From a virus (taxonomy: Duplodnaviria > Heunggongvirae > Uroviricota > Caudoviricetes), in IMG/VR virus record IMGVR_UViG_3300013137_000008: a stretch of DNA of 64,000 nt; one strand, 5' to 3'. Within the stretch, counting starts at the first letter, position 1. Every line of letters starts with the position of its first letter. The notes under the pieces are model-generated. The model made no database searches. It worked only from the letters and a program-made list of their open reading frames with translations, and was not told the DNA's origin. The position numbers and the translations under genes were made by a program. Positions 28,368 through 63,867 of the stretch are shown piece by piece.

Positions 28368-28379
28368 GTTTTAGTCCTC

Positions 28380-30328: not shown

Positions 30329-30506
30329 TAGGGCGTAGTCAGTCTTTAAAGGATTAGCTCCTTGCTTGAAAAAGTGAGGGGCTTTTTTCTTTTCAACTGC
30401 GGTTGAAAAGCATATCTTTTCCCTAATTGCGATTAAAAAGCATAGGTTAGCGACAAAAGACTTAAAAAACGTTGACTTATGTAGGTATAGTATGTATATT
30501 GGAAAT

Positions 30507-48700: not shown

Positions 48701-51700
48701 TGGTTAATGGATGGCAAACCAATAGATACAACTTTTGAAACTAACGCTATAAAAACCATTTCAGATTTTGCGCCTAGGGAAAAATTTGCGGGTGGAGTAA
48801 AAGGGATAGACGAGTGGTATCAAAAAGTTAGACCTGATTGGTATGATTATACTGGAAGTTTTAATCCTGATTATGCAATAGGAGTAGTAAAGGGATCGGT
48901 TTGGGTTGTTAGCGAATTATGGCAAATGGTTAGTGGTATGTTAGGGGTGTTACCGTTAACTATCTTAAAGGTTGGGAGAGAAGCTACTGCTGGTGATATT
49001 AATCATGCGGCAGAAACCATTGTAACAAGTGGTGGTGGGATGGTATTAATGCCAGGGGCATGGTTAGGTGAAAAAGTATCTGATATAGGAAGAGGTAATA
49101 TACCCAAATTTGTTGGGGAATCAGTAGGGATGGGGCTTAGTTTAGTATTTGCACCAGAAGCTTTGGCAAAAGGGTTAAATAGAGGGTTTAATGTATCTCA
49201 ATTAGCTATCAAAGCGGCAAAAGGTGATATTATTTCTGCTCGTGCAATAGCCAATTATCCAGAAGTAGTAGCAATTAGAACACCTCAATCATTTAGAGTA
49301 TTGGAAACTGAACTGTCGGCTATCTTTTCTGATAAAGTCAAGGTAGATAAGATATTGGAGAAATCTAATCCGATTGAACAGCGAAAAGAGATACGTGCAT
49401 TACTTAATCCAGAAACTGCAAAAGTATTTGATGCAATCGTTGAATTGGTAGATTTAGTAGGTGGATATACAGTTAACCCATCAAGTATTCGCAAAGTTAA
49501 CTTCGATGATATATTAAGAGTACCAATTGGAGCAGACAAAGCAATTAAATCAGTGCTGGATAATTATAAGGGAAAATTTGAAATACATGGTAGCTTTGCT
49601 GATTGGGTACAGATGAAAAATGTTCCTGATGCCTATAGACCAAAGGATTTGGACGCATTCTTTAATGATGATGTTTCTATTAATACGGTTGCAAAGAAAA
49701 TTTCAGATGATATAAATAAGGAACTAGGTAAGAATATAACAAGAGCAGAGGGAGCACAAATTAAAACGCTTAAAGATGGTAATTGGGATAAAATGCTTGA
49801 TATTCATCATAAGAGCGAATTTAGTTCTGTTGCTCCGCTAGGTTTTGAGCAAATAAGGAATAATGTTGTTGTTGATGGAATAGAATTTGAACCACTTGGC
49901 AATCAGTTATGGCATCGCGGTTGGGAATTAATGAACCCAGGAGTTGGTACACAACGTGGTTTAATGGGGCCAGTTGCCGCAGCTAAGGAATGGAGATTAA
50001 AAGATCAATATAGGTTTGAAGTATTGGTTAGGAGTATTATTAATGATTTGAAAACCAATGGAGAGGTTGAATTGGCTAATCAAGTATCAACTAATCTTAA
50101 TACATTCTTAACCTCACCACGGGGAGAAGCATTTAAATGGTCTCCTACAGAGATGGCTGACATATCTAGTGATTTCTTGGAACTCTTTAAGGAATTACAA
50201 GAAGCTTCAATATTGAGCGGTAAAAAGATGGTAGCTTTTGATGAGAAAGGCATACTTGTCAGAGAACCAACTCCGTCAGAGCAGGTAATTCCTGGTACGC
50301 TTTATCATGTTACCTTTGATATACGTCCTTATTTAGAGGCGCAGAAGAGGGGTAAACCAGTTACTATTGGTCAGATAATGGATGAAACTGGTAAATTAAC
50401 AAAGGCAGAAGGCCAGTTTTTATTTACATCACCACAGGCAGCATTTGATTTTATACAAAGATTAGGTGAAGTTGGCGAGAATGCTGGAGTGATTGCGATA
50501 CGTACTACTCTAAATGAGGTTGGATTGGGAAGAGATATAACTCCTGCGTTTAGGATAGAGCAATTTACTGAACCTAAAGAGTTTTCAATTGAAATAGGTG
50601 GTAAAAAGTTTGTCCCAGGTGGTGATGTCATTGTTGGGCGTACTTTAAATGAGTGGTTAGTCCAACCTGGAACCAAGATATATATGACTGGAGAGAAAAT
50701 TGGGACATACCACCCAAGAAGTCTAAAGGGGTATGATATTCATTGGGCACAGACCGCAGGGGCGAGGGATTTGGGGTTAAAGATGCCGAATAATGCCCAG
50801 ATTCATGCCATGAATTTAATGGCAATGAAAGAAACATTCAGGGATTTATTGAATCCTACTTTAGTCAAACAGATAAAAGTTATTAGTGGGCCAACTCCTG
50901 CTATTGGCGAAGGTAGTATTATTAGTTTTAGAAGGGAGCCAATATATTTTAAATCTGTCAATGAGCTAAGTGGCGATTTAAAATTAGTAAGTGACTTATT
51001 GAAAAAGAATAAGACATATAATAAGGCTACTGAAGAGATAGTACGTAGGGTTTGTGAGGAATATGGGTTTGATTATCATGAAGGTTTGGGTACAGAAAAG
51101 TTTGGAACAGGGTTACAAGGGATGTTTTCGCCATTGGAAGGCAAGATTACTTTAACGGATCAATTTATGCAAGACCCAAGGAGCCTAATAACAATTATCC
51201 ACGAATTAACACATAACAAAATGGATAAGTTAATTGATAGTAATCCTAGATATAGGAAAGGAATGGATAATTTACTCAAGGATGTCAGTGTGTATATTAA
51301 GAGTCGTTATGGTGTATCAGTACCGTTAGAAGTAGTAGATACATTTGTACACGAAATAGCCACTATTAATCATGTTAAGAGATTAAGTGGGTTCAATGAT
51401 ATAGATTATCATCTATATAATATTAAGGTTTTGGATGATGTTATCAATAAAATGACTAATGGAACAAGAGTTTTAAGCCCAGATGATATGTTAGCCTTGG
51501 TCAATATGGCAGAAAGTTACGAGAGAACATTACCTATCAAACATGGCATAAATTATGAATATCTACATAAGGCAATGGTAAATGATGCGAAAAATAAGAG
51601 ATCACAGGTGTTATCTCAAGCAGAGGTTAATGAAACCATAGCAATTGGTAAAGAAATGAGGGGTGAATATAGTTCACCGTTGAGCCTTATTCCATCTTTA

Positions 51701-52675
51701 ATAAAAGAGAGAATAAGTAGTACTGAATCTAAATTAAGGAATGATACTGATAGTATTGCTATTAAGCTTTCTAAAGAGGTTGAAAATAGTAAAACACAAA
51801 TAGAAGCAGATAATAAATTAAACCAGATAGTTGATGATGAGTTGGTTAAGTTTAAGAGAGAGATTGGAGAAGAGAACTTTGATAATATTGCAAAGAGTAG
51901 GGATTTTGAAAGGACTTATTACGTAAATCTTGATAAGGTATTTAAAAGTTCAATTAAACCACGTACGATAACTGTTAGTGAGACTCCATCCAAATCTAGT
52001 ATTATCCCTAGTGTGACTTCAGTTCCAGTAAGTGAGGTTGTTACTACAAAGATGGTTGGTAGTGAGCCAATCATTGAAACTATGCCTATTAGCGAAACTA
52101 TTGCTGAGAAAACAATTACAGAAGGAATAACTACTCCCATTACTACGTCAAAGACAGTTCCAGTAACTACAGGAACAATTACACCTACAATTCCAATAAC
52201 TACGCCTATTACGCCAATAATAACCACTACAACTAAAATTACGACTATTCCTATAACTACACCTGTTGCTATCCCAGTTATAACTACAAAAACAGCTCCA
52301 TCTCAAATAATAAAATTACAAAAAGTAAGGCAGATACTTAAAAAGGGTGATAAAGAAGGTTTGATAGCTTGGAAACAAGGTTGGAATTATCGTGTACTTT
52401 TTGCTCCGTGGTCACAAAATGATGTTTTGAATACTCGTAAACCAGTTGAAGGTGTGGAATATCATGAGGGAGTAAGGTCAGCCTATGATTCCATAGTTCG
52501 TAGGGGTGGGTATATCCCACCAGTAATTACTCGTGATATGGGCATCTACACGATTCAGATCAGGACACCAAAAGACCAGCGTAAACCAGAACTTGTGTTT
52601 AGGCGAGATGTGAAGGATGTTTACAAGGGTAAGAAGAAGCCTGTAGCCAAAATGCCACGTATCATACGGTTCTAA
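42737..52675 (+). CDS. Giant (3312 aa) multidomain protein with HExxH zincin-like metallopeptidase motif, Gly-rich and Thr/Pro/Ile-rich low-complexity tracts; polyvalent-protein-like
   Basis: Uninterrupted 9.9-kb ORF; no signal peptide; IIHELTHNKMD motif; SGAGGGGGGAVGSSG tract; C-terminal PITTPITPIITTTTKITTIPITTP tract; basic tail. Confidence 0.8.
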   Translation: MYGLNDEPLYFRGRRYCIGKLCFTGAVGASGPDLMLYTPPSIYSTPSSTPSAPAAPAEPVSSPVPTPPSDSLDSTFRRTQQVSGGASGDVYRESSESVARIGAGMGKGDVGQSKQLLSKEEEARQIQRLENLPHTWAEMVSQDPYVLLRPDAEARLAVLPESERPKITYPVNDSELALLKQQAAKYGTSEDEKIVQTVMNIMQSDWSPSATMPSDLLNLPKTYGELAVIKLGILNNSPNNTWTLSTGQKVTLPKSEYVNQAILDNTTYTYRQMGESEIPRSKTEPSTGVFSPNPNAFGLWTPLSDEARYDSRIVDALDKSKYQSALNIVDKLSEPWGARPSGAGGGGGGAVGSSGTMGSGGITIPGVTVNVAPTTGVVTVSSQGQERVTGVADTGTAFLTTQSMKEAAKQAGYGLLSAEDVKNVYDKAEQLQKWQAELPTAKNKVEIQRNIDEAQSYLSKVVKANTPLTPTLLVDAVESSIRNKSNPAQELANDGLTRAAEQAGGREIKDGVWETRTSTAKYMDALQEFLKGVQGIEREAPFKQKVFSDAQQVAQDNDEANAVDKGNRPTDPVKIMESWRYTKEAAQLRDSKGNNLTGEALSRVIEGWGKQRTAEGGSPITYVQYVPVGQTIENGVVKLVYDWRSVDENNKPYEYGVIQRPIWWDMSTGKILVTSKDWRPDRKLQNWQTFDEFAEAVARGEIATPNRILDAKAKKLESILKSAEWNKYLNDWNGFLKNPVKGDEPITDIPVSDLNIADFGYRYGAYYVDDKGIVDYKGIVKASERYEDSLNIDQPLDWVYILSGSSYKPEPVPVTEAQPERYVSTGTTETKFEPSEKIETKPSGVVSVDIAPKVFETSALTQESDGRIYKAKIVITVTKDKITETRYDDKGNIDIGGSYESPLAADTNSIPFQSLVRTIGLDSANKVVSDMQQAATTPSVITQEVRATTIPMLVGEGQGRKVVEQRGDKVRAIVFDANGIILFDNTYSADSDQGKFNIGFAKEQARLGLAKVNITSVQVTAPTKTERVETENVEPSSWFAGGLPKVLALPYLEGEISGDSSINIHDVGMDIVNGKTIISWKTDKPTLGIVQGCYDGGCGNWRDTELSTDHKIEVDISEYSPEQLATLHLTAITSTTGDGLKDTSIQWMPINKNVTLSAETVISSIPDMSMGSVKSVITTKEEPKFKGRELTSDENTAKGILWIKVDDNGIATAMDINRTVIYTVYPDGRMEGHDLHGGNRVCTNTECSIKHAKAIEDIKSAVKSAGMDINNYKPSVVVAAIPTISKVEGVKPTEFVITPTAIKAGITPKDIVNNMVTQAYVTDNKDWRTKVLDIVNKYTDKGILNIEKAYQEITRAKLPIAAPIIQPKIVSTPDETRRYFYWGVTLKPTMDETLFEVAKREMTTDYNEAKRRQSLAEYEPSDEAGKKLKATLAPQDQFTDYDRKVIENWESPKLFKSSTQWIGQDPMNYYGLAIEMGKQQVIVNKAKQVDALRKAGKLDEIPPMPTPYTSLATRLEPIISTTKSEYEKSLAIINANKLDSSKPVPTERDYTIVSTVEKYRGDDKLRTPNFYSVYEALKGGPWAIGVEGEVGGGLKLRVGQVTSERPEVPISEYYIPQPIVETSRQPMSNYLDVLFGRTTPQGWAGRYEMRAKPEISMRASELIKLGPFEGQVHLVKPKIPELSLEEKWIGMIPVLTMDSVKTWLPSETNKEAYTKQKAYFESQGYVLPLGSIFGGYDNQGKATFVSKVDFAKLSPDNKNVLLTEGISGLNAKMSVDSWNGGIVWGVIQEKYGSNPFKWAQDLRDTGVKPDEIRGLLATVNWKEPDTIDNVMKTIPKENEVTDSEWAKMWFNILAPGDQFVPNRVEFIEYATKHPEDPRANVLFKGVPSVLPLTYEAASDIDQKAPWSDQVMQIKLAEVKSLYKYGEKVQEGIGAEGNRVIQSVLAPGAWAMAGANGGFWDSEFRVGAEKNISPITFYVDPNTGEKKAEWLMDGKPIDTTFETNAIKTISDFAPREKFAGGVKGIDEWYQKVRPDWYDYTGSFNPDYAIGVVKGSVWVVSELWQMVSGMLGVLPLTILKVGREATAGDINHAAETIVTSGGGMVLMPGAWLGEKVSDIGRGNIPKFVGESVGMGLSLVFAPEALAKGLNRGFNVSQLAIKAAKGDIISARAIANYPEVVAIRTPQSFRVLETELSAIFSDKVKVDKILEKSNPIEQRKEIRALLNPETAKVFDAIVELVDLVGGYTVNPSSIRKVNFDDILRVPIGADKAIKSVLDNYKGKFEIHGSFADWVQMKNVPDAYRPKDLDAFFNDDVSINTVAKKISDDINKELGKNITRAEGAQIKTLKDGNWDKMLDIHHKSEFSSVAPLGFEQIRNNVVVDGIEFEPLGNQLWHRGWELMNPGVGTQRGLMGPVAAAKEWRLKDQYRFEVLVRSIINDLKTNGEVELANQVSTNLNTFLTSPRGEAFKWSPTEMADISSDFLELFKELQEASILSGKKMVAFDEKGILVREPTPSEQVIPGTLYHVTFDIRPYLEAQKRGKPVTIGQIMDETGKLTKAEGQFLFTSPQAAFDFIQRLGEVGENAGVIAIRTTLNEVGLGRDITPAFRIEQFTEPKEFSIEIGGKKFVPGGDVIVGRTLNEWLVQPGTKIYMTGEKIGTYHPRSLKGYDIHWAQTAGARDLGLKMPNNAQIHAMNLMAMKETFRDLLNPTLVKQIKVISGPTPAIGEGSIISFRREPIYFKSVNELSGDLKLVSDLLKKNKTYNKATEEIVRRVCEEYGFDYHEGLGTEKFGTGLQGMFSPLEGKITLTDQFMQDPRSLITIIHELTHNKMDKLIDSNPRYRKGMDNLLKDVSVYIKSRYGVSVPLEVVDTFVHEIATINHVKRLSGFNDIDYHLYNIKVLDDVINKMTNGTRVLSPDDMLALVNMAESYERTLPIKHGINYEYLHKAMVNDAKNKRSQVLSQAEVNETIAIGKEMRGEYSSPLSLIPSLIKERISSTESKLRNDTDSIAIKLSKEVENSKTQIEADNKLNQIVDDELVKFKREIGEENFDNIAKSRDFERTYYVNLDKVFKSSIKPRTITVSETPSKSSIIPSVTSVPVSEVVTTKMVGSEPIIETMPISETIAEKTITEGITTPITTSKTVPVTTGTITPTIPITTPITPIITTTTKITTIPITTPVAIPVITTKTAPSQIIKLQKVRQILKKGDKEGLIAWKQGWNYRVLFAPWSQNDVLNTRKPVEGVEYHEGVRSAYDSIVRRGGYIPPVITRDMGIYTIQIRTPKDQRKPELVFRRDVKDVYKGKKKPVAKMPRIIRF

Positions 52676-54592: not shown

Positions 54593-54704
54593 TCTCTATT
54601 TACTGAATACTCTATTTACTGTAGGGTGAACGGTGGTTCATTACTGTGGTGAACGGTAGTTCAGCAGGGGGTGAACAGTGGTTCAGTAGTGAACGGTGGT
54701 TCAC
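54593..54704. promoter_or_regulatory. Candidate operator array: direct repeat CTCTATTTACTG x2 followed by four copies of the palindrome GTGAAC-N4-GTTCA(C)
   Basis: gtgaacggtggttca (54626), gtgaacggtagttca (54649), gtgaacagtggttca (54671), gtgaacggtggttcac (54689); GTGAAC and GTTCAC are reverse complements. Confidence 0.6.
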
Positions 54705-54827
54705 CACATAATATAACATGATTAAGGTAGTCAAGTAGGCTTGACTACTCAGTAGTTTTATGGGCAGTAGTTCTATGGGTGATACTACTGTTTGAGGTGC
54801 AGAAATTTGCGCCTAAAGTTTCTATAG

Positions 54828-54942
54828 TTGCACAAGCATATATAATATGGTATAATAGAGTAGCAAATGGCAATAGCGGTCAAAATAGCACAGCAATGGA
54901 TGACGCAGGTGGTTGACATAGGCTAATACAGTATGCTATAAT
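54828..54942 (+). promoter_or_regulatory. Tandem sigma70-type promoters: TTGCAC-N17-TATAAT and TTGACA-N18-TATAAT
   Basis: ttgcac aagcatatataatatgg tataat (54828..54856); ttgaca taggctaatacagtatgc tataat (54913..54942); ATG at 54972 with GGAGGA SD. Confidence 0.6.
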
Positions 54943-54971
54943 ATAGCAAAACAAATAAAGATGGAGGAAAC

Positions 54972-55220
54972 ATGGATAGCAAAGAAGTTAAAGTAGTGGG
55001 AATCAATGACATGGTTACGGTCAAAATCGGAAACAAGGATTACTTTGTTAATTCGGGCAACTTTGTTTCTGAGGTGCAAAAGGCAGCGCATTCAGCAGGT
55101 CTAAGCCAGTACAAGGTCTATGTTAATGGCAATGTAATAGGTGAGCGTGAAGCGCATTCTATGACAGTAAAACCCTCAGATAAGGTTATGGTGCAGCCAT
55201 TTGATGAGGCTGGTAGTTAA
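54972..55220 (+). CDS. Ubiquitin-like beta-grasp protein (ThiS/MoaD-like)
   Basis: 82 aa. Alternating hydrophobic strands VKVVGI..VTVKIG. C-terminal block VYVNGNVIGE...VKPSDKVMVQPFDEAGS resembles ThiS/MoaD ...VNG..V......L..GD.V.i....GG. Ends AGS, not GG. Confidence 0.55.
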   Translation: MDSKEVKVVGINDMVTVKIGNKDYFVNSGNFVSEVQKAAHSAGLSQYKVYVNGNVIGEREAHSMTVKPSDKVMVQPFDEAGS

Positions 55221-55222
55221 CA

Positions 55223-56164
55223 ATGGAAGACACGGTGTGGGGGCGGAGTTTTAAAGAGATAGCCCCTGTTCTGCCTGTTGCAAGGGAACCTGAGCCTTGG
55301 GGAAGGAACTTACCTCAAAAGGTAGGGGGTAAAATGGGTATACCTCAGTGGGTTGGTTGGGGTGGACTTGGGATTGGTACGTGTCTTGCTCTTGGTGGAA
55401 CATTTATACCTATACTTGGGGTTGTCCCTATGGTAGTAGGTGGGATACTTGTCTTTGGTGGTGGAATAGTATTAGGTATAGGTGATAAATTAAGAGGTCA
55501 TTTGGGAAATGATGTTGTTATAGATGAGCAAGAAACCCCACAGGTGGAATCTACTTTTTGGATTGCCAATTCCGTAGTATCTTTACAGAGAGACTTTCGT
55601 AAACTAAAGGCACTTAATGAACTTAATCGAACGGTTGAATTGGTCAATGCCTATAACTTAACAGCGCAGGAGATATCTCGTATTAAGGAATCTAATGTGT
55701 CTAGTTTTGGCGTTACAACACAGATAGAGCCGCTCGCTACCGATGTATTCAGACAAGGATTACTATTCCTTTGTAGTGTGAGGGATTTCCTTAGTCTAAT
55801 TAAGGCAGAGGATGAGGGAAAATTACAGGGTATTGTCATGTCCCTTAATGATGAAATAGAAGAACTGTCTAAAAGTGGGTCGGCATTAGCTGCTCAAACA
55901 CTTGAACTTAAGTTTAGTTCACTTAGATATACGCAAGATCGTATCTTGAATTTGTCAACTAATAGAGAGTATGTTGCCCTATTAGTTGCTCGTGTAGAAG
56001 AATGTGAGAATATATTGAGGGTGACGTTTGATAACCTCACAAAGCTCAATATTGAGGATTCAGCAAGTTCAGTGGATGAAATACGGCATAGGTTACAGAA
56101 TTGTATCAATTTTGCCATTGAAGTAAGAAAGGAGATAAATAAAGCATGTCTCGAAGTATCGTAA
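55223..56164 (+). CDS. Membrane protein with Gly-zipper TM helices and a long coiled-coil domain
   Basis: GIPQWVGWGGLGIGTCLALGG...VVGGILVFGGGIVLGIG, then heptad-rich sequence. Confidence 0.5.
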   Translation: MEDTVWGRSFKEIAPVLPVAREPEPWGRNLPQKVGGKMGIPQWVGWGGLGIGTCLALGGTFIPILGVVPMVVGGILVFGGGIVLGIGDKLRGHLGNDVVIDEQETPQVESTFWIANSVVSLQRDFRKLKALNELNRTVELVNAYNLTAQEISRIKESNVSSFGVTTQIEPLATDVFRQGLLFLCSVRDFLSLIKAEDEGKLQGIVMSLNDEIEELSKSGSALAAQTLELKFSSLRYTQDRILNLSTNREYVALLVARVEECENILRVTFDNLTKLNIEDSASSVDEIRHRLQNCINFAIEVRKEINKACLEVS

Positions 56165-56475
56165 AGGTTATGGAAACCAGTGAGTTGCCTAAAGATTTTG
56201 AGGAGTCTTTCTATGCTAAGGTAGCAGAGCATAGGTTTTGTCCTAAATGTGGTAAAGAACGTAGTTTTGTTATTACAGGTAAAGAGGCAAATGGGTTTAA
56301 TACTAAGACTGGCAAGGTTATGTATTCGTATATAGGAATGGGGCATTGTAACGGGCACCAATGCTTACCTTGTAAACTTGAATTATGCAGAACGAATGAT
56401 GGCTCATATGAGTGGCACAATCAATACGAGTCACAATGGTATCCACCATTTAAAGATAAGACAGCGTGGTATTAA
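56146..56475 (+). CDS. Multi-Cys/His zinc-finger protein (possible binuclear treble-clef, RING-like)
   Basis: FCPKCGK...GMGHCNGHQCLPCKLELC...WH. Confidence 0.45.
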   Translation: MSRSIVKVMETSELPKDFEESFYAKVAEHRFCPKCGKERSFVITGKEANGFNTKTGKVMYSYIGMGHCNGHQCLPCKLELCRTNDGSYEWHNQYESQWYPPFKDKTAWY

Positions 56476-56494
56476 GAGATAGGAGAGTAGAATT

Positions 56495-57679
56495 ATGGGA
56501 ATAAACATTTTAGATCAATCAAAAGCACTTAGTATAGATGTTCAAAAGCCTAAAGTACCTGAGAAGTTATCGGATAAGGAAAAAGAACAGATAGAGTCTA
56601 TGGCTGACCAAGTGGTAAAGAAGTTGGAGTCATCCGATGGTTCGCAGATAATCGAGTATATTGAGCAGGTTGGTAATGTGGGATTTAAGGCGCAGCAGTC
56701 AGCCTCAACAAAACTTGACCTTTTTCAAAGTAGGATGGGACAGGTTTTTAACCACAAAGAATCGCTGTCTAGTCAAATAACAGACGATGTGGTGTCGCTC
56801 AAAAAGGCAATGCGTAGCATCAATCCGTCTGATATTAAGAAGGAATGGTTGGTATCATTTCTTGAGGCGTTGCCATTTGGGAATAAATTGGTTAATGTCT
56901 TACAGAGGATAGACGTTCGTAGAGAAAGCGTTGAGAAGGTTATCTCTACTATTGAGGCAAGTCTTACCAATGGGCGTAATATGATAGTAAAAGATAATGC
57001 TGAGTTGGGCGTACTCCATAAAGACCTTGAAGGGACTCAGACAGTTGTGCAGAAGAATGCGTATTTAGCTGAGGTGATGGCTGAAAAACTTGATGAACTG
57101 ATTGCCAACACAGTTGATACGCAGAAGCAAGGTCAATATAAGAACGTTTTGTTCAGAGTTGTTACTCGTGGGCAGGATTTACGTGCCATGGAAGCGGCCT
57201 ATGAGCAGTTCTTCGTATCTATCAAACTGACTAAGGAAAACAACTCGCTTCTAATAGATACGTCTCAGCGAATGCTTACTTTAGCGATGCCTGTCTTGTC
57301 AGTTGCCTTTGCTATTCATGTTGCTCTTGCAGAGCAGGGTAAAGTCCTTGATGCGGTTAAGGCTACCCGTGACTTTATCGGCGGTATGCTGATACAGAAT
57401 GCTACTGCTATCCGTGACAACATCAAGGAAACCGCCGAACTTTACAAAGAACCTATCATTGCTATCCAATCTATCGAAAAGGCACAGCAGATGCTTGTAC
57501 AGGCTATTGATGAAGTTGATAGGTTAAAGACAGTTGGAATTCAGACAGCTAGAGAGAACATCATGAAACTTAAGTATATATCTGAGGAGATGAGGCAAAA
57601 GGCTGAGGGTAATGCAGGAACGATTATGTCCCTTGAAGCTAACGATTATAAAGTTTTACCGAGTGGAGAAGAAAAATGA
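56495..57679 (+). CDS. TelA/KlaA-family protein (toxic anion resistance protein-like)
   Basis: 394-aa all-helical. LSDKEKEQIESMADQVV ... IKKEWLVSFLEALPFGNKLVNVLQRIDVRRESVEKVISTIEASLTNGRNMIVKDNAEL parallels the TelA/YaaN conserved core. Confidence 0.65.
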   Translation: MGINILDQSKALSIDVQKPKVPEKLSDKEKEQIESMADQVVKKLESSDGSQIIEYIEQVGNVGFKAQQSASTKLDLFQSRMGQVFNHKESLSSQITDDVVSLKKAMRSINPSDIKKEWLVSFLEALPFGNKLVNVLQRIDVRRESVEKVISTIEASLTNGRNMIVKDNAELGVLHKDLEGTQTVVQKNAYLAEVMAEKLDELIANTVDTQKQGQYKNVLFRVVTRGQDLRAMEAAYEQFFVSIKLTKENNSLLIDTSQRMLTLAMPVLSVAFAIHVALAEQGKVLDAVKATRDFIGGMLIQNATAIRDNIKETAELYKEPIIAIQSIEKAQQMLVQAIDEVDRLKTVGIQTARENIMKLKYISEEMRQKAEGNAGTIMSLEANDYKVLPSGEEK

Positions 57680-57978
57680 CAGAAAAGAATGAGTTTGACG
57701 CACTAAAGCAGTTATTCAATGACCCTCGAATTGGGGCAAAGTTTTTAAACATAGTGGCAGATGTTAAGGATTTGGGTAGTGCTATTTCTGAGAAGTTGAA
57801 GAGCAAAGAGTGCCAGGATGAGATAAACAAGGTCAAATCTACGTTAGGATTGGATAGTTGTCATGGGTGTGATGGGAAAGGATGGATAACTATAGGCAAA
57901 GATGAGGCTTTGAGACCCACAATGTGTCCGATTTGCAATGGAACGGGGAAGAAGCAGGATGAGCAAAAAACGGTATAA
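57676..57978 (+). CDS. Small protein with DnaJ-type CxxCxGxG zinc finger
   Basis: CHGCDGKGW...CPICNGTGKK. Confidence 0.45.
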   Translation: MTEKNEFDALKQLFNDPRIGAKFLNIVADVKDLGSAISEKLKSKECQDEINKVKSTLGLDSCHGCDGKGWITIGKDEALRPTMCPICNGTGKKQDEQKTV

Positions 57979-58717
57979 CGGGAACCTTTCTGCTGATAAG
58001 TTCATAAAGGAATTAGAGAAAGTCCCTGCTAAGGCAGCAGAAATCACCAAGGAGCTTCCAGTCATTGTAAGCATAGATGGCAAGTCGTATAAACTTTTGC
58101 CATGTGAAGAAGTGGATTATAAAGAAGTTATATTTGAATACGTGGAGACTTATCTAAAAGAAACTGTCAGTGCAATGAAGGGACAGGTTAAGGAATTTGC
58201 CTCTCGTTTGCAAGATAAAATTGATGAAATCAGTCTATCTCAAACAAAACAGTATCCTCCGCCACCCACTCTTGAGTTTGTAATGAACAACGATATGCAG
58301 ATAGCGGTTAAAGGCGGTTTATACTACTATATCCTGCCTTTTAACTATACTCCACAGTTATTGAGTGGTAGGAAGATTACAGGTGCAGACAAGTTATCTA
58401 GAGAGGTATTGATATTTTTTGGCTATGATACTAACAAAAAAGGAGAGTTTATATTAGAGAGTGTTGAACTGCGTAATTATAATATGAGTGCTTTTAATCA
58501 CTATCATGATTTAAATACGGTAGGAAAGGATTGTTGGGGCAACATAAGTCTACCCATAGGTTCTGCTTATGATGTGGCAAAGTTGCCTGAATTGCGGGAT
58601 AGGTTGCAGAATTCCTTGGAGAATATCAACGGGCGTAGCCTTGCTCATAATAAGCCATCTAAATTACCTGACGTTAAGAACATAAATATAAAACCAGGAA
58701 GTGTTGTATGGAGTTAG
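57959..58717 (+). CDS. Candidate E2-like (UBC-fold) protein
   Basis: NHYHDLNTVGKDCWGNISLP resembles the E2 HPN-x(5-6)-G-x-(I)C-L active-site region; sits directly upstream of E1. Start taken at MSKKRYNG. Confidence 0.4.
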   Translation: MSKKRYNGNLSADKFIKELEKVPAKAAEITKELPVIVSIDGKSYKLLPCEEVDYKEVIFEYVETYLKETVSAMKGQVKEFASRLQDKIDEISLSQTKQYPPPPTLEFVMNNDMQIAVKGGLYYYILPFNYTPQLLSGRKITGADKLSREVLIFFGYDTNKKGEFILESVELRNYNMSAFNHYHDLNTVGKDCWGNISLPIGSAYDVAKLPELRDRLQNSLENINGRSLAHNKPSKLPDVKNINIKPGSVVWS

Positions 58718-59460
58718 ACCGGCAGAATTCTTTAAAACTGAACATCCCCGATAGTGTCTGTGTGGTAGGGTGTGGCGGTATTGGCAATTGGGTTGCGCTT
58801 TATCTTACATTAATGGGGGTACGTTCGCTTTGCTTATTTGATGGCGATAAGGTGGAAATCCATAATCTCAATCGTACTATCTTCTCAAAAGCAGACATAG
58901 GCGAATACAAAACAGATGCGCTTAAGAAGATACTTAATGCTATGCGTAGCGTGAGCATCTTATCATTTACAAGTGAGTGTTCGTCTATTAAATTAGATAG
59001 CCTAATTGAAAAACCTGATGTTTTTATGGATTGTACAGATAGACATGAAGTGCAGTTAACAATGGCAAAATGGTGTGAGAACAATAAGGTGCGATATATT
59101 AGGGTTGGGGCTAATACAAACCATATTACTGTGACTTCTAATGTAAATACATGGGGTGAATCTAAACAAGAACAATGTGGCGTTACTATACCAAGTTGGG
59201 TTGCCCCAGTTGCTCTTGTAGCAGCTTATGCTATAACAAAGCTTGCTTTGAATTCAGGCTTGGAAGTCAGTATGTCATTGGATGATGAAAACACTATTCC
59301 TGATGGAATATCTGTTGGTGAACGAGAAGGGCTAGGGAAACATAATGATATTCCTGTTTATCGTACCCTAGAACCCTTTTCTTCTCCTAATGCCAATATT
59401 CCTAATGATTGGCTTTGCTCTGAATATAGAGAAGAAGTCTATAATCAAATACGGAGATAA
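58708..59460 (+). CDS. E1-like ThiF/MoeB-family adenylyltransferase
   Basis: VCVVGCGGIGNWVALYLTLMGVRSLCLFDGDKVEIHNLNRTIF...GEYKTDALKKIL...VFMDCTDRHEVQL: Rossmann GxGxxG, D-x-D and conserved DCTD motifs. Confidence 0.85.
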   Translation: MELDRQNSLKLNIPDSVCVVGCGGIGNWVALYLTLMGVRSLCLFDGDKVEIHNLNRTIFSKADIGEYKTDALKKILNAMRSVSILSFTSECSSIKLDSLIEKPDVFMDCTDRHEVQLTMAKWCENNKVRYIRVGANTNHITVTSNVNTWGESKQEQCGVTIPSWVAPVALVAAYAITKLALNSGLEVSMSLDDENTIPDGISVGEREGLGKHNDIPVYRTLEPFSSPNANIPNDWLCSEYREEVYNQIRR

Positions 59461-59462
59461 AT

Positions 59463-59672
59463 ATGGCTAAGATTTGTCCGATTATGAGCGCAGGATGGTT
59501 AGCAAACAAATGGGGTGCTACGATAGGTGGAGCCAAGAATACGAGTGTGTTAGATAACCTCGTAGAATGTAAAGAGGAAGTTTGTATGGCTTTTGAAGAT
59601 GGTGAATGTGGATTATGCAGTAAGCTAATTTCAACAATGAAATCTAAGGATATGGGAGTAAAAGAGTGTTAG
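59463..59672 (+). CDS. Small Cys-rich protein
   Basis: CP...C.EEVC...GECGLC...C; 69 aa. Confidence 0.4.
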   Translation: MAKICPIMSAGWLANKWGATIGGAKNTSVLDNLVECKEEVCMAFEDGECGLCSKLISTMKSKDMGVKEC

Positions 59673-60361
59673 ACTTAACAAAACCAATAGTAGATTGGAT
59701 GCCTAAGAATAAAACATGGTCAAGTGATGTGCAGGTACATGAAAAGTGTATCTTGAACAATGGCACAGTATATATGGATAGCTTGGTACATGACAAGGTT
59801 CGCATGTTAACAGGACAGATATCAACTGAATGGCTGGGATACCTAATTGGCAAGGTAGATGGGACAAAGGCTTATATAGAGGATATCTTTATCCCTGAGC
59901 AATCTGTGAGTTCGACTCATGTACACGTCAAAGATCAGGTTTTGCCTGAGAACATCATAGGTACAGTCCATTCACATCATACCATGGGTAATTTCCTATC
60001 AGGGACAGATCATAGGCATTTGGTAGGTAATCACGCTGTGACTATAGTTGCCTCACGGACTGGATTGATGTCTAAAATGCGGGTAAAAGCCCCTTGCGAA
60101 GCCTTAATGCTATTAGATGCCGATATTGAGGTTGAAGACTCTGCAATGCTTAAAGAATTTTTTGAACAGAATATAACCAAGATTGAGGGTAGTGGTGTTA
60201 ATCCTAATACTCCTAAATTAAACTGGGCAGGGAAAATTTGGCGGTATCCTGCCACTGTACTTTCCAATTGGCAGTCAAGGTCGGGTAAGAATGGTATTGT
60301 CGTTGTGGTAATTGTGGTTCTTTTGGCGTTGGCCTTGATACTTTATGGTAGAGGATTCTAG
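59666..60361 (+). CDS. JAB/JAMM (MPN) metallopeptidase with C-terminal TM anchor
   Basis: E...HSHHTMGNFLSGTD fits E-x(n)-H-x-H-x7-S-x2-D; C-terminal IVVVVIVVLLALALILYG. Confidence 0.8.
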   Translation: MLDLTKPIVDWMPKNKTWSSDVQVHEKCILNNGTVYMDSLVHDKVRMLTGQISTEWLGYLIGKVDGTKAYIEDIFIPEQSVSSTHVHVKDQVLPENIIGTVHSHHTMGNFLSGTDHRHLVGNHAVTIVASRTGLMSKMRVKAPCEALMLLDADIEVEDSAMLKEFFEQNITKIEGSGVNPNTPKLNWAGKIWRYPATVLSNWQSRSGKNGIVVVVIVVLLALALILYGRGF

Positions 60362-60603
60362 TGAGCGTTAGAGAGCGCAGATTACGTAACTTAGGTAGGG
60401 ATTATCCCAAGCTTGGTAGCTATAGGGGTGATAGTTCCCATTATAAAGGGCGGGTGTTATCAATAGGTTTAGGTAGGACTATTGGGCTAATATTTGTGTT
60501 AGTATCGCTAGCGGCTATTATTATGGCAGCGACAATGATTTCTCCAATGTTTCTTATACTTATGACATTAATAGCGATACCATTTATATTTGGGTATGAT
60601 TAA
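60361..60603 (+). CDS. Small membrane protein
   Basis: C-terminal TM helices. Confidence 0.4.
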   Translation: MSVRERRLRNLGRDYPKLGSYRGDSSHYKGRVLSIGLGRTIGLIFVLVSLAAIIMAATMISPMFLILMTLIAIPFIFGYD

Positions 60604-60605
60604 CA

Positions 60606-61088
60606 ATGACTATAAAAGAACGTAGAATGCGTAATTCATACACTTCTATCAATCAATCTAGTTGGGTACAGCCTCATTGTAAACAAAAGAAGCAACGATC
60701 TAGTCCCGCTAATTCTAGTCCTGATTGGGATGTTTTGTCCTTCTTGACGCCATTTGGCGTAGTTATATTGATAATTTTATTTTGCCAACCATTTTGTAAT
60801 GGAAATGAAGGGCAGGTTGCCCAAGAGGTACAAAAGTTTAATGCTATAGTCCAAAGTGATAATTACACTCAAATGAGATTTATTTGCTCTGGGGTAGCTG
60901 AGGCGGAAGCATTTGGCAAGGTAATAGAGTACAAAGATTCTCGTTATGGCTGGTTTAGAGAAATGGCTGTTAAGAATTTAGACGGGACTATTACTGAGAA
61001 GATAGGGCTTCAGGAAGGTAAAGCTTATCAAGTCTACGAGTATAATGGGCGTTACTTTGCATCTGAGATACCTAGTTCATCGCCGTAA
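60606..61088 (+). CDS. Hypothetical membrane-anchored protein
   Basis: One TM helix; 160 aa. Confidence 0.4.
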   Translation: MTIKERRMRNSYTSINQSSWVQPHCKQKKQRSSPANSSPDWDVLSFLTPFGVVILIILFCQPFCNGNEGQVAQEVQKFNAIVQSDNYTQMRFICSGVAEAEAFGKVIEYKDSRYGWFREMAVKNLDGTITEKIGLQEGKAYQVYEYNGRYFASEIPSSSP

Positions 61089-61141: not shown

Positions 61142-61552
61142 GTGCATAGAATCTTACCGTGGATTTTAGTTATCGCAGTAGTGGCTATTATGATAATATT
61201 GTGGATTGTCAATATGCCACCTAAATCTGATGAAGCTAAGGCAAGTGGTGGGTTTTCATGTGGGTGTGCTGCTCCTGAAGATGATTCGTACATTTCGCTT
61301 GGTAGTGGTGTTATTACTAATATAGAATATGTGAAAAAGGGCGAGAAAACATACATAAAGTTCTTGATAGATGGTACTCCAGTAACACTTGATTTTGACA
61401 AGACAAAGACGGCAGACTATTCAGAAATATATGGTACTACTAATATAGAGGAAGGAATGTACTATTATATATATGAGAAAGGGGGTAGATTAATTTGGTC
61501 AACAACACCTAAGCCCACAAGGGATAGAAGTAAAGTAAATGAAAAGGAGTAA
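61142..61552 (+). CDS. NfeD-like small membrane protein (TM plus beta-rich C-terminal domain), SPFH partner
   Basis: GTG start; N-terminal TM; paralog of 62416..62895 (IDGTPVTLDFDKT...YYYIYEKGGRLIWSTTPKP). Confidence 0.45.
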   Translation: MHRILPWILVIAVVAIMIILWIVNMPPKSDEAKASGGFSCGCAAPEDDSYISLGSGVITNIEYVKKGEKTYIKFLIDGTPVTLDFDKTKTADYSEIYGTTNIEEGMYYYIYEKGGRLIWSTTPKPTRDRSKVNEKE

Positions 61553-62375
61553 AAGAGTGAAGGAATTTGAATGGAACGGTTGGAGCACTGCAGGTGTCAT
61601 ATTGGCGTTTATCTTTGTATTGATTACATTGATTGGTGGTATAGTGACTACGCCTGCTGGTCATACTAATATCGTGCTACAGTTTGGCAAAGTAGTTGGG
61701 ACTAAGGCAGAGGGGTTGTCTTTTAAGATGCCCATAATTGAGAATGTGGTTACTATGAGTTTGCAGACTCAACTATATTCGGAGTCGGCATCTGCGGCAA
61801 GCAAGGATTTACAGGATGTGAACACAAAGGTAGCAATCAACTATCGTGTCGATCCTATATATGTTTCTGAGATTTATCGTACTTTAGGAGTGAACTATAT
61901 AGACAAAATAGCTGCTCCTGCTGTGCAGGAAGTAGTCAAGGAAATCACAGCTCGCTATAATGCTGAAGATATGATACTTAGGCGTGCAGATGTCAAAAAC
62001 GACATCACTAATTCCTTGAGCCAACGTTTACGTGAGCGTGGGATAATCACTGAGACAGTCAATATAACTGACTTCAAGTTTTCTCCAGTGTTCACTCAGG
62101 CTATTGAATCTAAGGTGTCTGCATTACAGGCAGTCTTAGAAGCGCAGAATAAGCTTGAGCGTGTTCGTGTTGAGGCGCAACAGGCTAAAGCGCAAGCTGA
62201 GGGTGAAGCAAATGCGGCAGTGGCAAGGGCAGAAGGTCAGGTCAAAGCCATTGAGATTCTGAAAGCCGCCTTAACCCCTGAGTATCTTCAGTATATCTAC
62301 ATTGATAAATTAGCAAAAGATGCTAAGGTTATTGTAGTTCCACAGGGTATGCCTCTAACTCTTTCGGGTTATTAG
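61539..62375 (+). CDS. SPFH/band-7 (stomatin/prohibitin-like) protein
   Basis: N-terminal TM, SPFH core, Ala/Gln/Glu-rich coiled-coil tail AQQAKAQAEGEANAAVARAEGQ; true start may be the GTG at 61557. Confidence 0.7.
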   Translation: MKRSKRVKEFEWNGWSTAGVILAFIFVLITLIGGIVTTPAGHTNIVLQFGKVVGTKAEGLSFKMPIIENVVTMSLQTQLYSESASAASKDLQDVNTKVAINYRVDPIYVSEIYRTLGVNYIDKIAAPAVQEVVKEITARYNAEDMILRRADVKNDITNSLSQRLRERGIITETVNITDFKFSPVFTQAIESKVSALQAVLEAQNKLERVRVEAQQAKAQAEGEANAAVARAEGQVKAIEILKAALTPEYLQYIYIDKLAKDAKVIVVPQGMPLTLSGY

Positions 62376-62415: not shown

Positions 62416-62895
62416 GTGCTTAAATACATAAATTGGTTCATTGTATGGGTAATTGCATCAGTCATAGTAGTATTTGCCACGGGTGGTATATCTACAGATA
62501 ATGTTACTGTACCACAAATGTCGTGCGAGTCTAAAGATATGCAGAAAGTGGATAAACCTACTGAGAGTGTACAAACTAAGGATAACTTTAGCTGTGGGTT
62601 TAGACTCTCAGGGTTAACCCTTATATCTAAGGGCATTGTGCGTAATATAATGATTGATAAAAACGCAGAACCAAACACAATCTCATTTGAGGTGGATGGT
62701 CAGCCAATGACTTTAGATTATGACAAGACGGTATCTCGTAGTAGAATAGACGTGCAGATATATAATAAGGATGGGAAGAAAGTTATAGAAGAAGGGAAGT
62801 ATTATTATATCTATGATTGGGACAATTTTAGAATAGTATGGTCACAAACACCCAAAATGTTGGATGGAGGTTTATTAGCGGATTTGAAAGAGTGA
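62416..62895 (+). CDS. NfeD-like small membrane protein (paralog of 61142..61552)
   Basis: N-terminal TM; VDGQPMTLDYDKT...YYYIYDWDNFRIVWSQTPK. Confidence 0.45.
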   Translation: MLKYINWFIVWVIASVIVVFATGGISTDNVTVPQMSCESKDMQKVDKPTESVQTKDNFSCGFRLSGLTLISKGIVRNIMIDKNAEPNTISFEVDGQPMTLDYDKTVSRSRIDVQIYNKDGKKVIEEGKYYYIYDWDNFRIVWSQTPKMLDGGLLADLKE

Positions 62896-62949: not shown

Positions 62950-63867
62950 ATGGTAGGTCTTATATTCATCTTGGTAGGTGTAGGTCTATTCCTAATCTTG
63001 GCATTGGCAACTTCTATATTTACAGTCAGACAACAGACGGCAGCGGTTATTGAACGGTTTGGCAAGTATGTGCGGACAGTGGGGCCTGGTATTCATATGA
63101 AGTGGTTTTTTGGTATTGAGTCGATTGTCGCTCGCCCAACTCTCAGAATTAGCCAGTTAGACTTGAAAATGCAGTCAAAGACTAAGGATGATGTGACTGT
63201 GACTTTGCAACTGGCAATCCAGTACGTGATACCAACTATGGATAAGATTTGTGATGCGTACTACAAGCTTATCAACCATGAACAGCAGATTGAATCATGG
63301 GTATTTGATGTAGTTCGTTCTAAAGTCCCTAACTTGACTATGAACGAGGTTTATGAGAACAAAGACGAAATCGCTAAGGACGTAGAGGACAGGCTTAAGG
63401 AACGGATGCACATCTATGGTTTTGAGATCGTGAGGGCGTTGGTGAACGATGTAATTCCACCTTCTAAGGTTATGGAAGCGATGAATGAAGTTAATACTCA
63501 GCAAAGGTTACAGGTTGCTGCTTCAGCAGAGGGTGAGAAGAACAAAATTCTTACCATCAAAGCCGCAGAAGCACAGAAGGAGAATAAGATTCTCCAAGGT
63601 CAGGGTATAGCAGGAGAACGGAAAGCTATCATGGAAGGTCTTAAGGAAGCGGTTGAGGACTTCAAGAAAGGCGTACCTGGGGCTACTTCCAATATGGCTA
63701 TGAACCTTTTGGTTCTCACTCAATACTTTGACACTCTCCAGACTTTTGGCAAGAGCACAAACGGCAAAGTTGTCTTGCTACCGTCTAACCCTGGAGCTGT
63801 AGGTGATTGGCAAAACCAGATACTATCAATGCTTGTGGCTGGTAGTGAAACTAAGACAAAGGAGTAG
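62950..63867 (+). CDS. SPFH/band-7 protein (second copy)
   Basis: N-terminal TM; QTAAVIERFGKYVRTVGPGIHMK...; AAGGAG SD. Confidence 0.75.
   Translation: MVGLIFILVGVGLFLILALATSIFTVRQQTAAVIERFGKYVRTVGPGIHMKWFFGIESIVARPTLRISQLDLKMQSKTKDDVTVTLQLAIQYVIPTMDKICDAYYKLINHEQQIESWVFDVVRSKVPNLTMNEVYENKDEIAKDVEDRLKERMHIYGFEIVRALVNDVIPPSKVMEAMNEVNTQQRLQVAASAEGEKNKILTIKAAEAQKENKILQGQGIAGERKAIMEGLKEAVEDFKKGVPGATSNMAMNLLVLTQYFDTLQTFGKSTNGKVVLLPSNPGAVGDWQNQILSMLVAGSETKTKE

Follow-up and report, generated by a model that had tools for sequence, protein, structure and literature searches.

A widespread phage-borne cassette for probable ubiquitin-like conjugation and its clade-specific combination with membrane-associated proteins

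Described systems and the locus compared with them

Several prokaryotic systems bring together the components of ubiquitin-like transfer. The Type I/II BilABCD operons (bacterial ISG15-like, anti-phage) encode E1 and E2 as distinct proteins, next to a JAB/JAMM peptidase and a ubiquitin-like protein (Ubl) that has a conserved C-terminal glycine. They serve chromosomal defence and follow the gene order Ubl-E2-DUB-E1; their E2 (BilB) is of the CEHH/Prok-E2 type, with a conserved histidine after the cysteine, and their E1 (BilD), of ~500 aa, has an IAD+AAD+CYS build and a Zn site. Type II BilA can carry one-residue extensions behind the glycine, whose removal by the JAB enzyme was shown by experiment, and in E. 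aridi BilA (Gly97-Ala98) a cut by BilC is required before conjugation (10.1101/2023.09.26.559546). Type II CBASS combines a ThiF-type adenylation domain and a JAB peptidase in Cap2/Cap3, where Cap2 is an E2-E1 fusion with the C-terminus of a CD-NTase as substrate. Operon classes 6a-6e (Iyer, Burroughs, Aravind 2006; including Bub, 6E, and PRTRC) likewise unite Ubl, E1-like, E2-like and JAB genes on mobile DNA (PMC1779556).

The window, i.e. the whole 64,000-nucleotide stretch of a Caudoviricetes virus record (IMGVR_UViG_3300013137_000008) analyzed here, carries an operon with the same four types of components, including a Ubl with a short post-glycine extension as is possible in Type II BilA. 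It belongs neither to Bil nor to CBASS Cap2/Cap3. Differently from Bil, the protein in the E2 position has an HYH motif before its cysteine and no detectable similarity to BilB (hhalign P=0.43; no Pfam or PADLOC match), the E1 is a single adenylation domain of 190-250 aa, BilD is not found among its PDB matches, the gene order is Ubl...E2-E1-(x)-JAB, the cassette is located on phage contigs, and accessory TelA, TM and Zn genes, not described for Bil, are present. In contrast to CBASS, E2 and E1 are encoded by separate genes, the substrate is a beta-grasp Ubl, and both CD-NTase and effector are absent; PADLOC E1-E2 models match the E1 at 1e-15, in their E1 part only. Pfam Prok-E2 families derived from classes 6a-6e match nothing here, PRTRC models give noise-level matches only (TIGR03736, 33 bits vs 145; TIGR03735, E=0.09), and Bub, with its serine oxyesters and DUF6527 protease, is unlike the present cassette. 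The initial annotation knew of no described system with this architecture, and Pfam, PADLOC, NCBIfam, PHROGs and the searchable literature yielded no description of it. Our preferred reading, to which we assign a probability of roughly 0.7, is a phage/MGE-encoded Ubl protein conjugation system whose basis is a cassette of four genes, for the Ubl, the protein with the cysteine in the E2 position, a minimal ThiF-type E1 and a JAMM peptidase.

The operon and its membrane-associated partners

Nine co-directional, tightly packed genes behind a strong promoter/operator region had been proposed, and both points hold: the ORFs (54972-60361, + strand) overlap or lie at most 19 nt apart (spacing -20 to +19 nt), and the upstream elements are present (Table 1). 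Three further sequence lineages keep all nine genes in identical order, at ~50-68% protein identity, so that the operon is more than a chance arrangement. The conserved gene set runs beyond 60361 and includes at least two small membrane-protein genes.

Table 1. Features of the locus (positions in the window)
Feature	Position	Strand	Details
Four operator-like copies of a palindromic motif	54624..54709	+	GTGAAC-N4-GTTCA type; divergent intergenic region
Sigma-70 promoter	54913..54942	+	TTGACA-18-TATAAT, TG extended -10; 12/12 consensus match
Ribosome-binding site	54963-54967	+	GGAGG
Ubiquitin-like beta-grasp protein, 82 aa	54972..55220	+	End QPFDEAG-S: conserved Gly81 plus one extra residue
Clade-specific membrane protein, 313 aa	55223..56164	+	Two-TM coiled-coil
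Zinc-ribbon protein, 109 aa	56146..56475	+	CPKCG ... HC-x4-C-x2-C
TelA/KlaA-family protein, 394 aa	56495..57679	+	PF05816, E=2e-37, 129.5 bits vs cut-off 30; phrog_5890
100-aa protein, DnaJ-type zinc finger	57676..57978	+	Helical conserved N-terminus; paired C-terminal CxxCxGxG knuckles
E2-position protein, 252 aa	57959..58717	+	Cys192 invariant; alternative start 57938
ThiF/MoeB-type E1 adenylating enzyme, 250 aa	58708..59460	+	Minimal single-domain; PF00899, E=7.3e-30
Cys-rich protein, 69 aa	59463..59672	+	CP-x..-C-x4-C-MA[YF]-x2-G-x-C
JAMM/MPN+ metallopeptidase, 231 aa	59666..60361	+	PF14464 Prok-JAB; C-terminal TM anchor
Single-pass membrane protein, 80 aa	60361..60603	+	N-terminal V-S-V-R-E-R-R-L-R-N
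Single-pass membrane protein, 160 aa	60606..61088	+	N-terminal M-T-I-K-E-R-R-M-R-N
SPFH/Band_7 membrane protein	61539..62375	+	PF01145, E=7.8e-27; neighbour, system membership uncertain
Second SPFH/Band_7 membrane protein	62950..63867	+	PF01145, E=2.8e-29; neighbour, membership uncertain

As first described, the Ubl, E1 and JAB genes are interspersed with telA, a membrane-protein gene and genes of small zinc-finger proteins. The TelA assignment was confirmed, the protein being a full-length family member and the most conserved gene product of the set (63-68% identity). This family has been tied to resistance against membrane-active agents (PMC6811118, PMC11765107); known telA genes accompany xpaC, ter or kilA and are tied to tellurite, nisin or daptomycin tolerance. 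PMC1779556 makes no mention of TelA, and no report linking TelA with a Ubl cascade was found in the searchable literature. In the 313-aa protein the N-terminus is variable, residues ~40-90 form a hydrophobic, Gly-rich region, and the C-terminal domain, helical and ~200 aa long, is strongly conserved. The protein had no match in Pfam or the PDB, and hhalign indicated that it is unrelated to TelA. Its earlier description as pore-like is unsupported, since it offers only the glycine-rich stretch followed by the helical domain.

The zinc-ribbon gene occurs in 2-3 tandem copies in two loci (L001 and L002), the start of the DnaJ-type gene overlaps the TelA stop (ATGA), and the 69-aa Cys-rich gene is kept between E1 and JAB in every lineage of the clade. 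TM segments are found in the JAB enzyme, the 313-aa protein and the small downstream proteins, and in L004 a Band_7 gene lies directly upstream of the operon. Only in the window clade were genes found for TelA, the two-TM coiled-coil protein, the zinc-finger proteins and the small membrane proteins, and the clade-specific arrangement is a Ubl tagging kit combined with membrane-associated proteins.

The wider cassette family and its core proteins

The protein in the E2 position founds a family of 119 representatives, whose motif F-x-HYH-x(3-8)-C-[WL]-G is almost invariant. It adjoins a ThiF gene in 12/12 distant loci (L011, L013, L014, L095, L096, L098-L104), accompanied by a JAMM gene in 10 (it is missing in L013, and L099 ends too early) and by a small protein with a [YF]D-x-x-G end in 11 (L102 has no upstream sequence). 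From this association it follows that the core is a phage-borne Ubl/E2-like/E1/JAB cassette, which is widespread in uncultivated phages; 7/12 of the distant loci are IMG/VR viral contigs. The cassette is missed by Pfam, PADLOC, NCBIfam and GenBank phages. Note that this wider family of four core genes had been overlooked in the initial annotation.

The tails of the distant Ubl relatives align with the ...FDEAG-S end of the window Ubl, and 10 of the 11 stop exactly at the glycine matching Gly81, that of L100 having one extra Met. These distant ends, together with the BilA precedent, support the earlier suggestion that a Ubl ending in AGS may be processed by the JAB enzyme. The latter is indeed a JAMM peptidase with a C-terminal TM segment (residues 210-228, KD 3.1): it scores 27.2 bits against PF14464 (cut-off 25), and the residues of its motif, E55...H102-S-H104-x7-S112-x2-D115, are invariant in six homologues. 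It is a candidate for both the maturing and the deconjugating enzyme of the Ubl, and in the L003/L004 lineage it has no membrane anchor.

Profile searches placed the E1 in PF00899, in agreement with the first assignment to ThiF/MoeB. Its ATP-binding residues are invariant in the alignment, and it possesses GxGGxG, D45, N53/R56, K68 and D108-C-x-D111. Cys157 (EQCG) is a candidate catalytic cysteine, as judged from the sequence; it is missing from all four distant E1s compared (L011, L014, L095, L096), so that an E1 thioester step would not be family-wide. In NCBIfam and the PDB the enzyme matches ThiF, MoeB and MccB best, and PaaA too is among its best matches in the PDB. These matches, the minimal single-domain build shared with MoeB/ThiF and the ThiS/MoaD size of the Ubl would also fit a sulfur carrier, i.e. 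a ThiS/MoaD/QbsE-like Ubl that the JAMM enzyme trims and the E1 adenylates and that, as thiocarboxylate, serves as sulfur donor for a cofactor, a tRNA or a secondary metabolite, without conjugation to proteins. JAMM-trimmed sulfur carriers are indeed known (CysO/Mec+ and QbsE/QbsD). However, the NCBIfam matches are all far under the equivalog cut-offs (ThiF, 77 bits vs 159), no rhodanese, cysteine desulfurase, ThiG/ThiH, MoaE or other biosynthetic enzyme occurs here or in the 12 distant loci, the obligate extra partner is the invariant-Cys protein instead, and the setting is a phage, which makes a sulfur carrier very improbable.

The 252-aa protein had been read as a candidate UBC-like E2 with an H-x-H-x6-G-x2-C region. 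What stands is the conserved cysteine in the E2 position; the actual spacing is H181-Y-H183-x5-G189-x2-C192, and no fold or profile test could verify a UBC fold. The AF2 model is poor (pLDDT 62, motif loop <50), the PDB hmmsearch gave no match, P was 0.31 in the hhalign comparison with six eukaryotic E2s, and none of 56 diverse family members matched the Pfam families Prok-E2 or UQ_con. Among these members Cys192, Tyr182 and Gly194 never vary, while His181 and His183 are at least 90% conserved, within the signature PF-x-Y-x-P ... F-x-HYH-x(3-8)-C-[WL]-G ... P..LP ... W. Given that every fold and profile test for UBC similarity was negative, that His-x-His plus Cys could bind zinc and that the E1 has MccB and PaaA among its best matches in the PDB, the motif may instead form a metal site or another catalytic centre, e.g. 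of a peptidase or transferase acting on the Ubl-adenylate, ligation being driven by the E1 alone as in Pup-like, MccB-like or E2-independent SAMP/UbaA-type systems; SAMP conjugation in archaea does not need an E2. We consider this unlikely, since the predicted AF2 core (helix, four strands, His/Cys-motif loop, helix) would be arranged as in a minimal UBC core, and linkage of the protein to E1, Ubl and JAB is strict (12/12 loci). In addition, the His 9 residues ahead of the Cys, the helix that follows and P..LP parallel, by eye and without statistical support, the HPN-x-C...PN..PL of E2s. The 252-aa protein is probably the carrier (E2-like) enzyme of the cascade, with Cys192 as candidate thioester carrier.

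Phage context and proposed mechanism

The placement on a phage-like element is supported by PHROG matches, HNH endonucleases and a DnaB helicase in the window, within which no structural phage genes were identified; the L096 contig carries a terminase. The host of this virus-like element is probably a Dehalococcoidia bacterium. The operon has its own consensus promoter and operator-like repeats, as morons under independent regulation typically do, the PHROGs class of the TelA-like genes is 'moron, auxiliary metabolic gene and host takeover', and in L001 a resolvase adjoins it, all of which would suit a Bil-like anti-phage moron of a temperate phage or MGE that tags proteins of superinfecting phages, with TelA and the membrane proteins as sensor or effector, and does not aid replication of its carrier. 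Such defence cargo appears unlikely, as PADLOC matches nothing beyond the generic E1 domain and the distant cassettes lie among replication-type phage genes (AAA_25, LAGLIDADG). Moreover, defence systems reside as a rule mostly in cellular genomes, whereas a pattern scan of GTDB species-representative genomes revealed no members of the window clade, and the distant subfamily is found on viral contigs. The mechanism of such cargo overlaps with that of the conjugation system we favour, and the beneficiary alone differs.

For the favoured conjugation system, sequence features are what was observed, and from them we infer each biochemical step. The membrane-anchored JAMM enzyme would trim the 82-aa pro-Ubl (...DEAG-S), exposing Gly81, which the E1, probably a MoeB-like homodimer, would adenylate; in the window clade an E1 thioester on Cys157 is probable. 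The Ubl would then be handed to the invariant Cys192, with the preceding HYH in the role of the classical E2 HPN motif, and moved onto an amine of the target(s), no E3 having been identified; the JAMM enzyme may also reverse the conjugation. Eukaryotic ATG8 lipidation provides an analogy only, in that a Ubl with residue(s) past its reactive Gly is processed by a dedicated protease and E1-/E2-like enzymes act in a membrane-tied reaction; homology is limited to generic folds, the protease of the window system is a JAMM enzyme and not a cysteine protease of the ATG4 type, and lipid conjugation in the window system is pure conjecture.

The clade-specific membrane partners around the cassette suggest, as neighbours, that conjugation takes place at the membrane, most likely at the cytoplasmic face of the host membrane. 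The target would most likely be a co-encoded membrane-associated protein, or a membrane protein of the host or of a competitor phage. As possible roles the initial annotation had put forward superinfection exclusion, counter-defence or virion protein modification. The likely purpose of the system would be a changed envelope state in infection, which might serve superinfection exclusion, lysis timing or the control of membrane integrity.

The operon and its Ubl, E1 and JAMM components

All nine open reading frames listed for this operon in the initial annotation are found on the + strand, where neighbouring genes either overlap by at most 20 nt or are separated by at most 19 nt, and the first ATG, that of the gene for the ubiquitin-like protein (Ubl), has a GGAGG ribosome-binding site 4 nt on its 5' side. 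The proposal that these genes form a Ubl/E2-like/E1/JAB conjugation operon joined by TelA, membrane and zinc-finger genes has proved largely right, with the UBC fold of the E2-like protein and the suggested functions as its putative parts. Beyond E1, TelA and JAB, searches of Pfam, PADLOC, PHROGs, NCBIfam and PDB sequences returned no significant match for five other operon proteins, the sole exception being a weak DnaJ-type CxxCxGxG match in the 100-aa protein; no family was found in Pfam, PADLOC, PHROGs or NCBIfam for the E2-like protein, the membrane coiled-coil protein (TM-CC), the zinc-ribbon protein (Zn109) or the Cys-rich protein (Cys69).

Features of the operon, its upstream region and related motif proteins (window coordinates unless a locus is named)
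Feature	Coordinates	Strand	Remark
Four palindromic TGAAC-N-GTTCA-type repeats	54624-54709		Divergent intergenic region
Sigma-70 consensus promoter	54913-54942		12/12 match, extended -10; 5' of Ubl gene
Ubl, 82 aa	54972-55220	+	
TM coiled-coil protein (TM-CC), 313 aa	55223-56164	+	
Zinc-ribbon protein (Zn109), 109 aa	56146-56475	+	
TelA, 394 aa	56495-57679	+	Pfam PF05816
DnaJ-type zinc finger protein, 100 aa	57676-57978	+	
E2-like protein, 252 aa	57959-58717	+	Alternative start 57938
E1, 250 aa	58708-59460	+	Pfam ThiF PF00899
Cys-rich protein (Cys69), 69 aa	59463-59672	+	
JAB, 231 aa	59666-60361	+	Pfam Prok-JAB PF14464
KERRLRN-type proteins, L001	12544-13644		
KERRLRN-type proteins, L002	11499-12961		
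KERRLRN-type proteins, L004	7549-8031, 15513-15770		

The beta-grasp fold claimed for Ubl is borne out by an AlphaFold2 model (pLDDT 76, four sequences in the alignment) of bb-a-bb-(a)-b topology, in which the C-terminal tail with its Gly is exposed. The C-terminus itself, QP[FY]DEAG[SC], is common to the four lineages of the clade. In E. aridi, BilA must be cut at Gly97-Ala98 by BilC prior to conjugation, a precedent for one-residue trimming of Ubl by JAB (10.1101/2023.09.26.559546).

Profile searches also placed the two enzymes where they had been expected. E1 matches ThiF (E=7.3e-30, 104.3 bits vs a cut-off of 28.1), and its ATP-site residues (G21-x-G23-G24-x-G26, N53/R56, K68 and D108/D111) do not vary among seven homologues. 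It is a single-domain protein that falls outside the ThiF/MoeB equivalogs, since its best NCBIfam match (NF006395) scores 77 bits where 159 are required, and every other NCBIfam match is likewise under its cut-off; thiamine or molybdopterin biosynthesis genes were looked for among its neighbours and none were seen. Its Cys157 is kept in the window clade and in the distant locus L013, and is absent from the other four distant E1s checked. JAB matches the JAMM family Prok-JAB at 27.2 bits (cut-off 25) with its E...HxHx7Sx2D motif intact, which aligns with the active site of CSN5 and whose residues E55, H102, H104, S112 and D115 are unchanged across six homologues. The C-terminal segment of JAB (residues 210-228) is strongly hydrophobic, and a TM anchor is present in three of the four lineages.

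The E2-position protein and the wider phage-borne cassette

The protein encoded between the zinc finger and E1 genes, which had been taken for a candidate UBC-like E2, is the weak link in reading the operon as a Ubl cascade, as Pfam, PADLOC, hhalign and hmmsearch detected no similarity to UQ_con, Prok-E2_A-E, BilB or Cap2. PADLOC gave no match for it, and a Pfam scan of 56 members of its family matched no family. Profiles built from four and from 56 sequences retrieved coiled-coil noise only when run with hmmsearch against PDB sequences, and hhalign of the 56-sequence core profile was not significant either against six eukaryotic E2s (P=0.31) or against E. aridi BilB (P=0.43). The AlphaFold model, built on an alignment of only four sequences, reaches a pLDDT of 62.5, with values below 50 in the region of the conserved motif, and nothing in the PDB scored below E=0.04 against it in Foldseek. 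In its core (residues 105-222) a helix, four strands, the motif loop and a helix are predicted, an order of elements that matches a minimal UBC core but is not proof of one.

An exhaustive profile search of 1.84 billion representatives recovered relatives of this protein in at least 119 sequence clusters. The family is recognised by the signature PF-x-Y-x-P ... F-x-H-Y-H-x(3-8)-C-[WL]-G ... P..LP ... W, in which Y182, C192 and G194 are invariant, whereas conservation of H181 and H183 is 90% or more. With its His residues placed before Cys, the motif recalls the HPN...Cys arrangement of classical E2s, unlike the Cys...His order (CEHH) of BilB. A caspase-like His...Cys dyad was also considered for the HYH..C motif and rejected, the spacing of about 9 residues being too short.

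The case for a joint role of the HYH..C protein with E1, Ubl and JAB rests most firmly on the strict linkage of their genes. Twelve distant loci were examined, comprising five metagenome contigs (L011, L013, L014, L095, L096) and seven IMG/VR viral contigs (L098-L104). In 12/12 of them a ThiF-type gene adjoins the gene encoding the invariant Cys with the His motif just upstream of it, as would be expected of an E2-type protein. A JAMM gene follows downstream in 10 of the 12, usually as the next gene; L013 lacks one, and the L099 contig stops short. Just upstream, 11 of the 12 encode a protein ending in ...[YF]D-[KRVI]-[AVP]-G, the exception being L102, which is without upstream sequence. These [YF]D-x-x-G tails align with the ...FDEAG-S of the window; 10 of the 11 stop exactly at Gly, and that of L100 carries one extra Met. 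The contigs contain Terminase_3 (L096), AAA_25 replication proteins, LAGLIDADG and many small ORFs and look like phage genomes, and in the annotated loci the cassette often adjoins the AAA_25 replication genes. Annotation of five distant loci (L011, L013, L014, L095, L096) yielded no TelA gene, and blastn and tblastn found no relatives of the operon or cassette among GenBank phages. The linkage of Ubl, HYH..C, ThiF and JAMM genes in the distant loci thus puts a conserved four-gene cassette borne by phages at the centre of the finding.

Among the described bacterial systems, the operon would work like Bil (Ubl, E2, JAB, E1) but falls outside BilABCD: E1 is single-domain here whereas BilD is multidomain, the gene order differs from the Ubl-E2-DUB-E1 of BilABCD, and no similarity to a BilB-type (CEHH / Prok-E2) E2 is seen. 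Nor is it CBASS type II (Cap2/Cap3), which has an E2-E1 fusion together with a CD-NTase and an effector; here E2 and E1 have separate genes, and no CD-NTase model was matched in PADLOC or Pfam. Bub systems use the DUF6527 serine protease BubE and have serine rather than cysteine active sites (PMC11601596); by contrast with this 6E / DUF6527 type, the E2-position protein here has an invariant Cys, and Pfam gives no DUF6527 match. PRTRC assignment fails in NCBIfam (33 bits vs a cut-off of 145, the other match at E=0.09), and no ParB was found. In the literature searched, the coverage of which was incomplete, there was no paper linking TelA with ThiF or JAB and no description of a complete phage-encoded Ubl cascade. 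The operon is best classed as one of a new family of Ubl conjugation cassettes borne by phages; its clade has a TelA/membrane/zinc-finger expansion of its own.

The window clade, its membrane-associated neighbours and its probable host

The full nine-gene arrangement also occurs in the related loci L001, L002 and L004-L007, with parts of it on the short contigs L003 and L008. L009 does not differ from the window, and L010 seems to be a near-identical copy of L001, with which it has the motif proteins in common. These loci form a clade of four lineages at about 50-68% identity. Pattern scans with the clade's E2-like protein returned nothing from GTDB genomes and IMG/VR and only L010 from JGI metagenomes, and a TelA-clade scan of IMG/VR likewise returned none. 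TelA, the most conserved operon protein (63-68% identity), was correctly recognised as TelA/KlaA (E=2e-37, 129.5 bits vs 30, profile positions 14-329 of 332). All four clade TelA proteins end in ...G-E-x-K, the C-terminal Lys being invariant. TM-CC is not related to TelA, and no relatives of it were found outside the clade; the zinc-finger and Cys-rich proteins were observed in the window clade only, the clade loci alone having been searched. The Zn109 gene is present in tandem copies, three in L001 (7405-8417) and two in L002 (6334-7222), and in L002 the 3' end of the TM-CC gene was duplicated along with it, suggesting that rearrangement at this site is recent and still under way.

Directly after the JAB gene, every lineage encodes one to four small single-pass membrane proteins starting M-[ST]-[IV]-K-E-R-R-L-R-N. 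In a six-frame scan of the window this KERRLRN-type motif was found in ORFs 60361-60603 and 60606-61088 only, and it may represent a recognition tag or an acceptor lysine. In its broader form the motif reads M-[ST]-[IV]-[KR]-[ED]-R-R-[LM]-[RH]-[NS]; it always flanks the Ubl operon in the related loci, and in L001 and L010 it is also seen at the C-terminus of an ORF of 85 aa on the 5' side of the Ubl gene. The operon has SPFH/Band_7 genes close to its downstream end in the window and close to its upstream end in L004. The cytoplasmic membrane is a recurrent theme of the clade. In the window there are two tandem pairs, each of a small N-terminal-TM protein and an SPFH/Band_7 protein (61142-61552 / 61539-62375 and 62416-62895 / 62950-63867). 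The small proteins of both pairs are paralogues with a common C-terminal EEG.YYYIY...R[IL][IV]WS.TPK, a looser version of which (EG..Y.[IV]Y) occurs in 60606-61088 and in L001 13192-13644.

Elsewhere, the window codes for HNH endonucleases and a DnaB helicase as well as for several PHROG-only families, and it has three giant ORFs, the longest of 3312 aa; neither a tRNA nor a recognisable gene for capsid or terminase turned up in its 64 kb. The giant ORFs (30653-34114, 34439-39133 and 42737-52675; 1153, 1564 and 3312 aa) have weak fn3 matches only and no PHROG match; they could encode virion proteins of an adhesin or fibre type, or else surface proteins. ORF 24210-25256 (- strand) matches phrog_15773 and, weakly, an ice-binding beta-roll; inside it, a 24-nt tandem repeat (24661-25113; 18.9 copies, 94% matches) encodes an octapeptide repeat. 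At about 28000-30600 both coding strand and GC skew switch: to the left most genes are on the - strand, to the right most are on the + strand, a pattern suggestive of a replication origin or of divergently transcribed units. A transposase of the IS4 type (DDE, with a SWIM zinc finger; 15443-16693, - strand) is 88-90% identical to copies in Dehalococcoidia MAGs and is the sole clue to the host taxon; taken with the sigma-70 promoter and Shine-Dalgarno sites, it points indirectly to a bacterial host, probably of the Dehalococcoidia. An archaeal or Borg-like origin, raised by the giant ORFs and the strand bias, was rejected because of the perfect sigma-70 promoter, the GGAGG sites and these 88-90% identical IS copies.

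Proposed mechanism and significance

We infer every step of the following scheme from sequence features. JAB would remove the residue after Gly81 of Ubl, Gly81 would be adenylated by E1, and Ubl would form a thioester on E1 Cys157, move on to Cys192 of the 252-aa protein and then be passed to a target amine. The membrane-associated neighbour genes suggest that the reaction would be organised at the membrane. A far more specific reading, which we consider improbable, is that the window clade is a membrane-directed Ubl system of a bacterial virus, in which Ubl matured by the anchored JAMM protein would be joined, on the inner side of the host membrane, to the conserved N-terminal KERRLRN lysine of the co-encoded small membrane proteins, to TelA or, in the style of ATG8, to a membrane lipid amine, so as to remodel or seal the Dehalococcoidia envelope in infection; the enzyme involved would be an E2 lineage of canonical His-before-Cys layout that the libraries searched (Pfam, PADLOC, NCBIfam and PDB) do not contain.

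To our knowledge, descriptions of bacterial Ubl conjugation (CBASS Cap2, Bil, Bub) have so far presented it as a means of host immunity to phages. The cassette suggests the opposite situation, in which phages themselves carry a complete Ubl/E2-like/E1/JAB cascade, with an E2-like family of at least 119 sequence clusters that goes unrecognised in the domain, defence-system and phage databases of today. Possibly the E2-position protein represents a new lineage of E2s, with His-x-His before Cys in a manner reminiscent of the eukaryotic HPN-Cys, and it would then bear on how E2 enzymes arose. For the poorly understood TelA family, the TelA/membrane clade would supply a concrete partner in biochemical terms, and the nine-gene operon would be a tractable system for the role of Ubl at a bacterial membrane. 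If the membrane-directed reading were true, the window clade would be a prokaryotic-virus counterpart of ubiquitin-coupled membrane biology. An active cassette would mean that viruses of bacteria, as those of eukaryotes do, bring ubiquitin-type machinery of their own.
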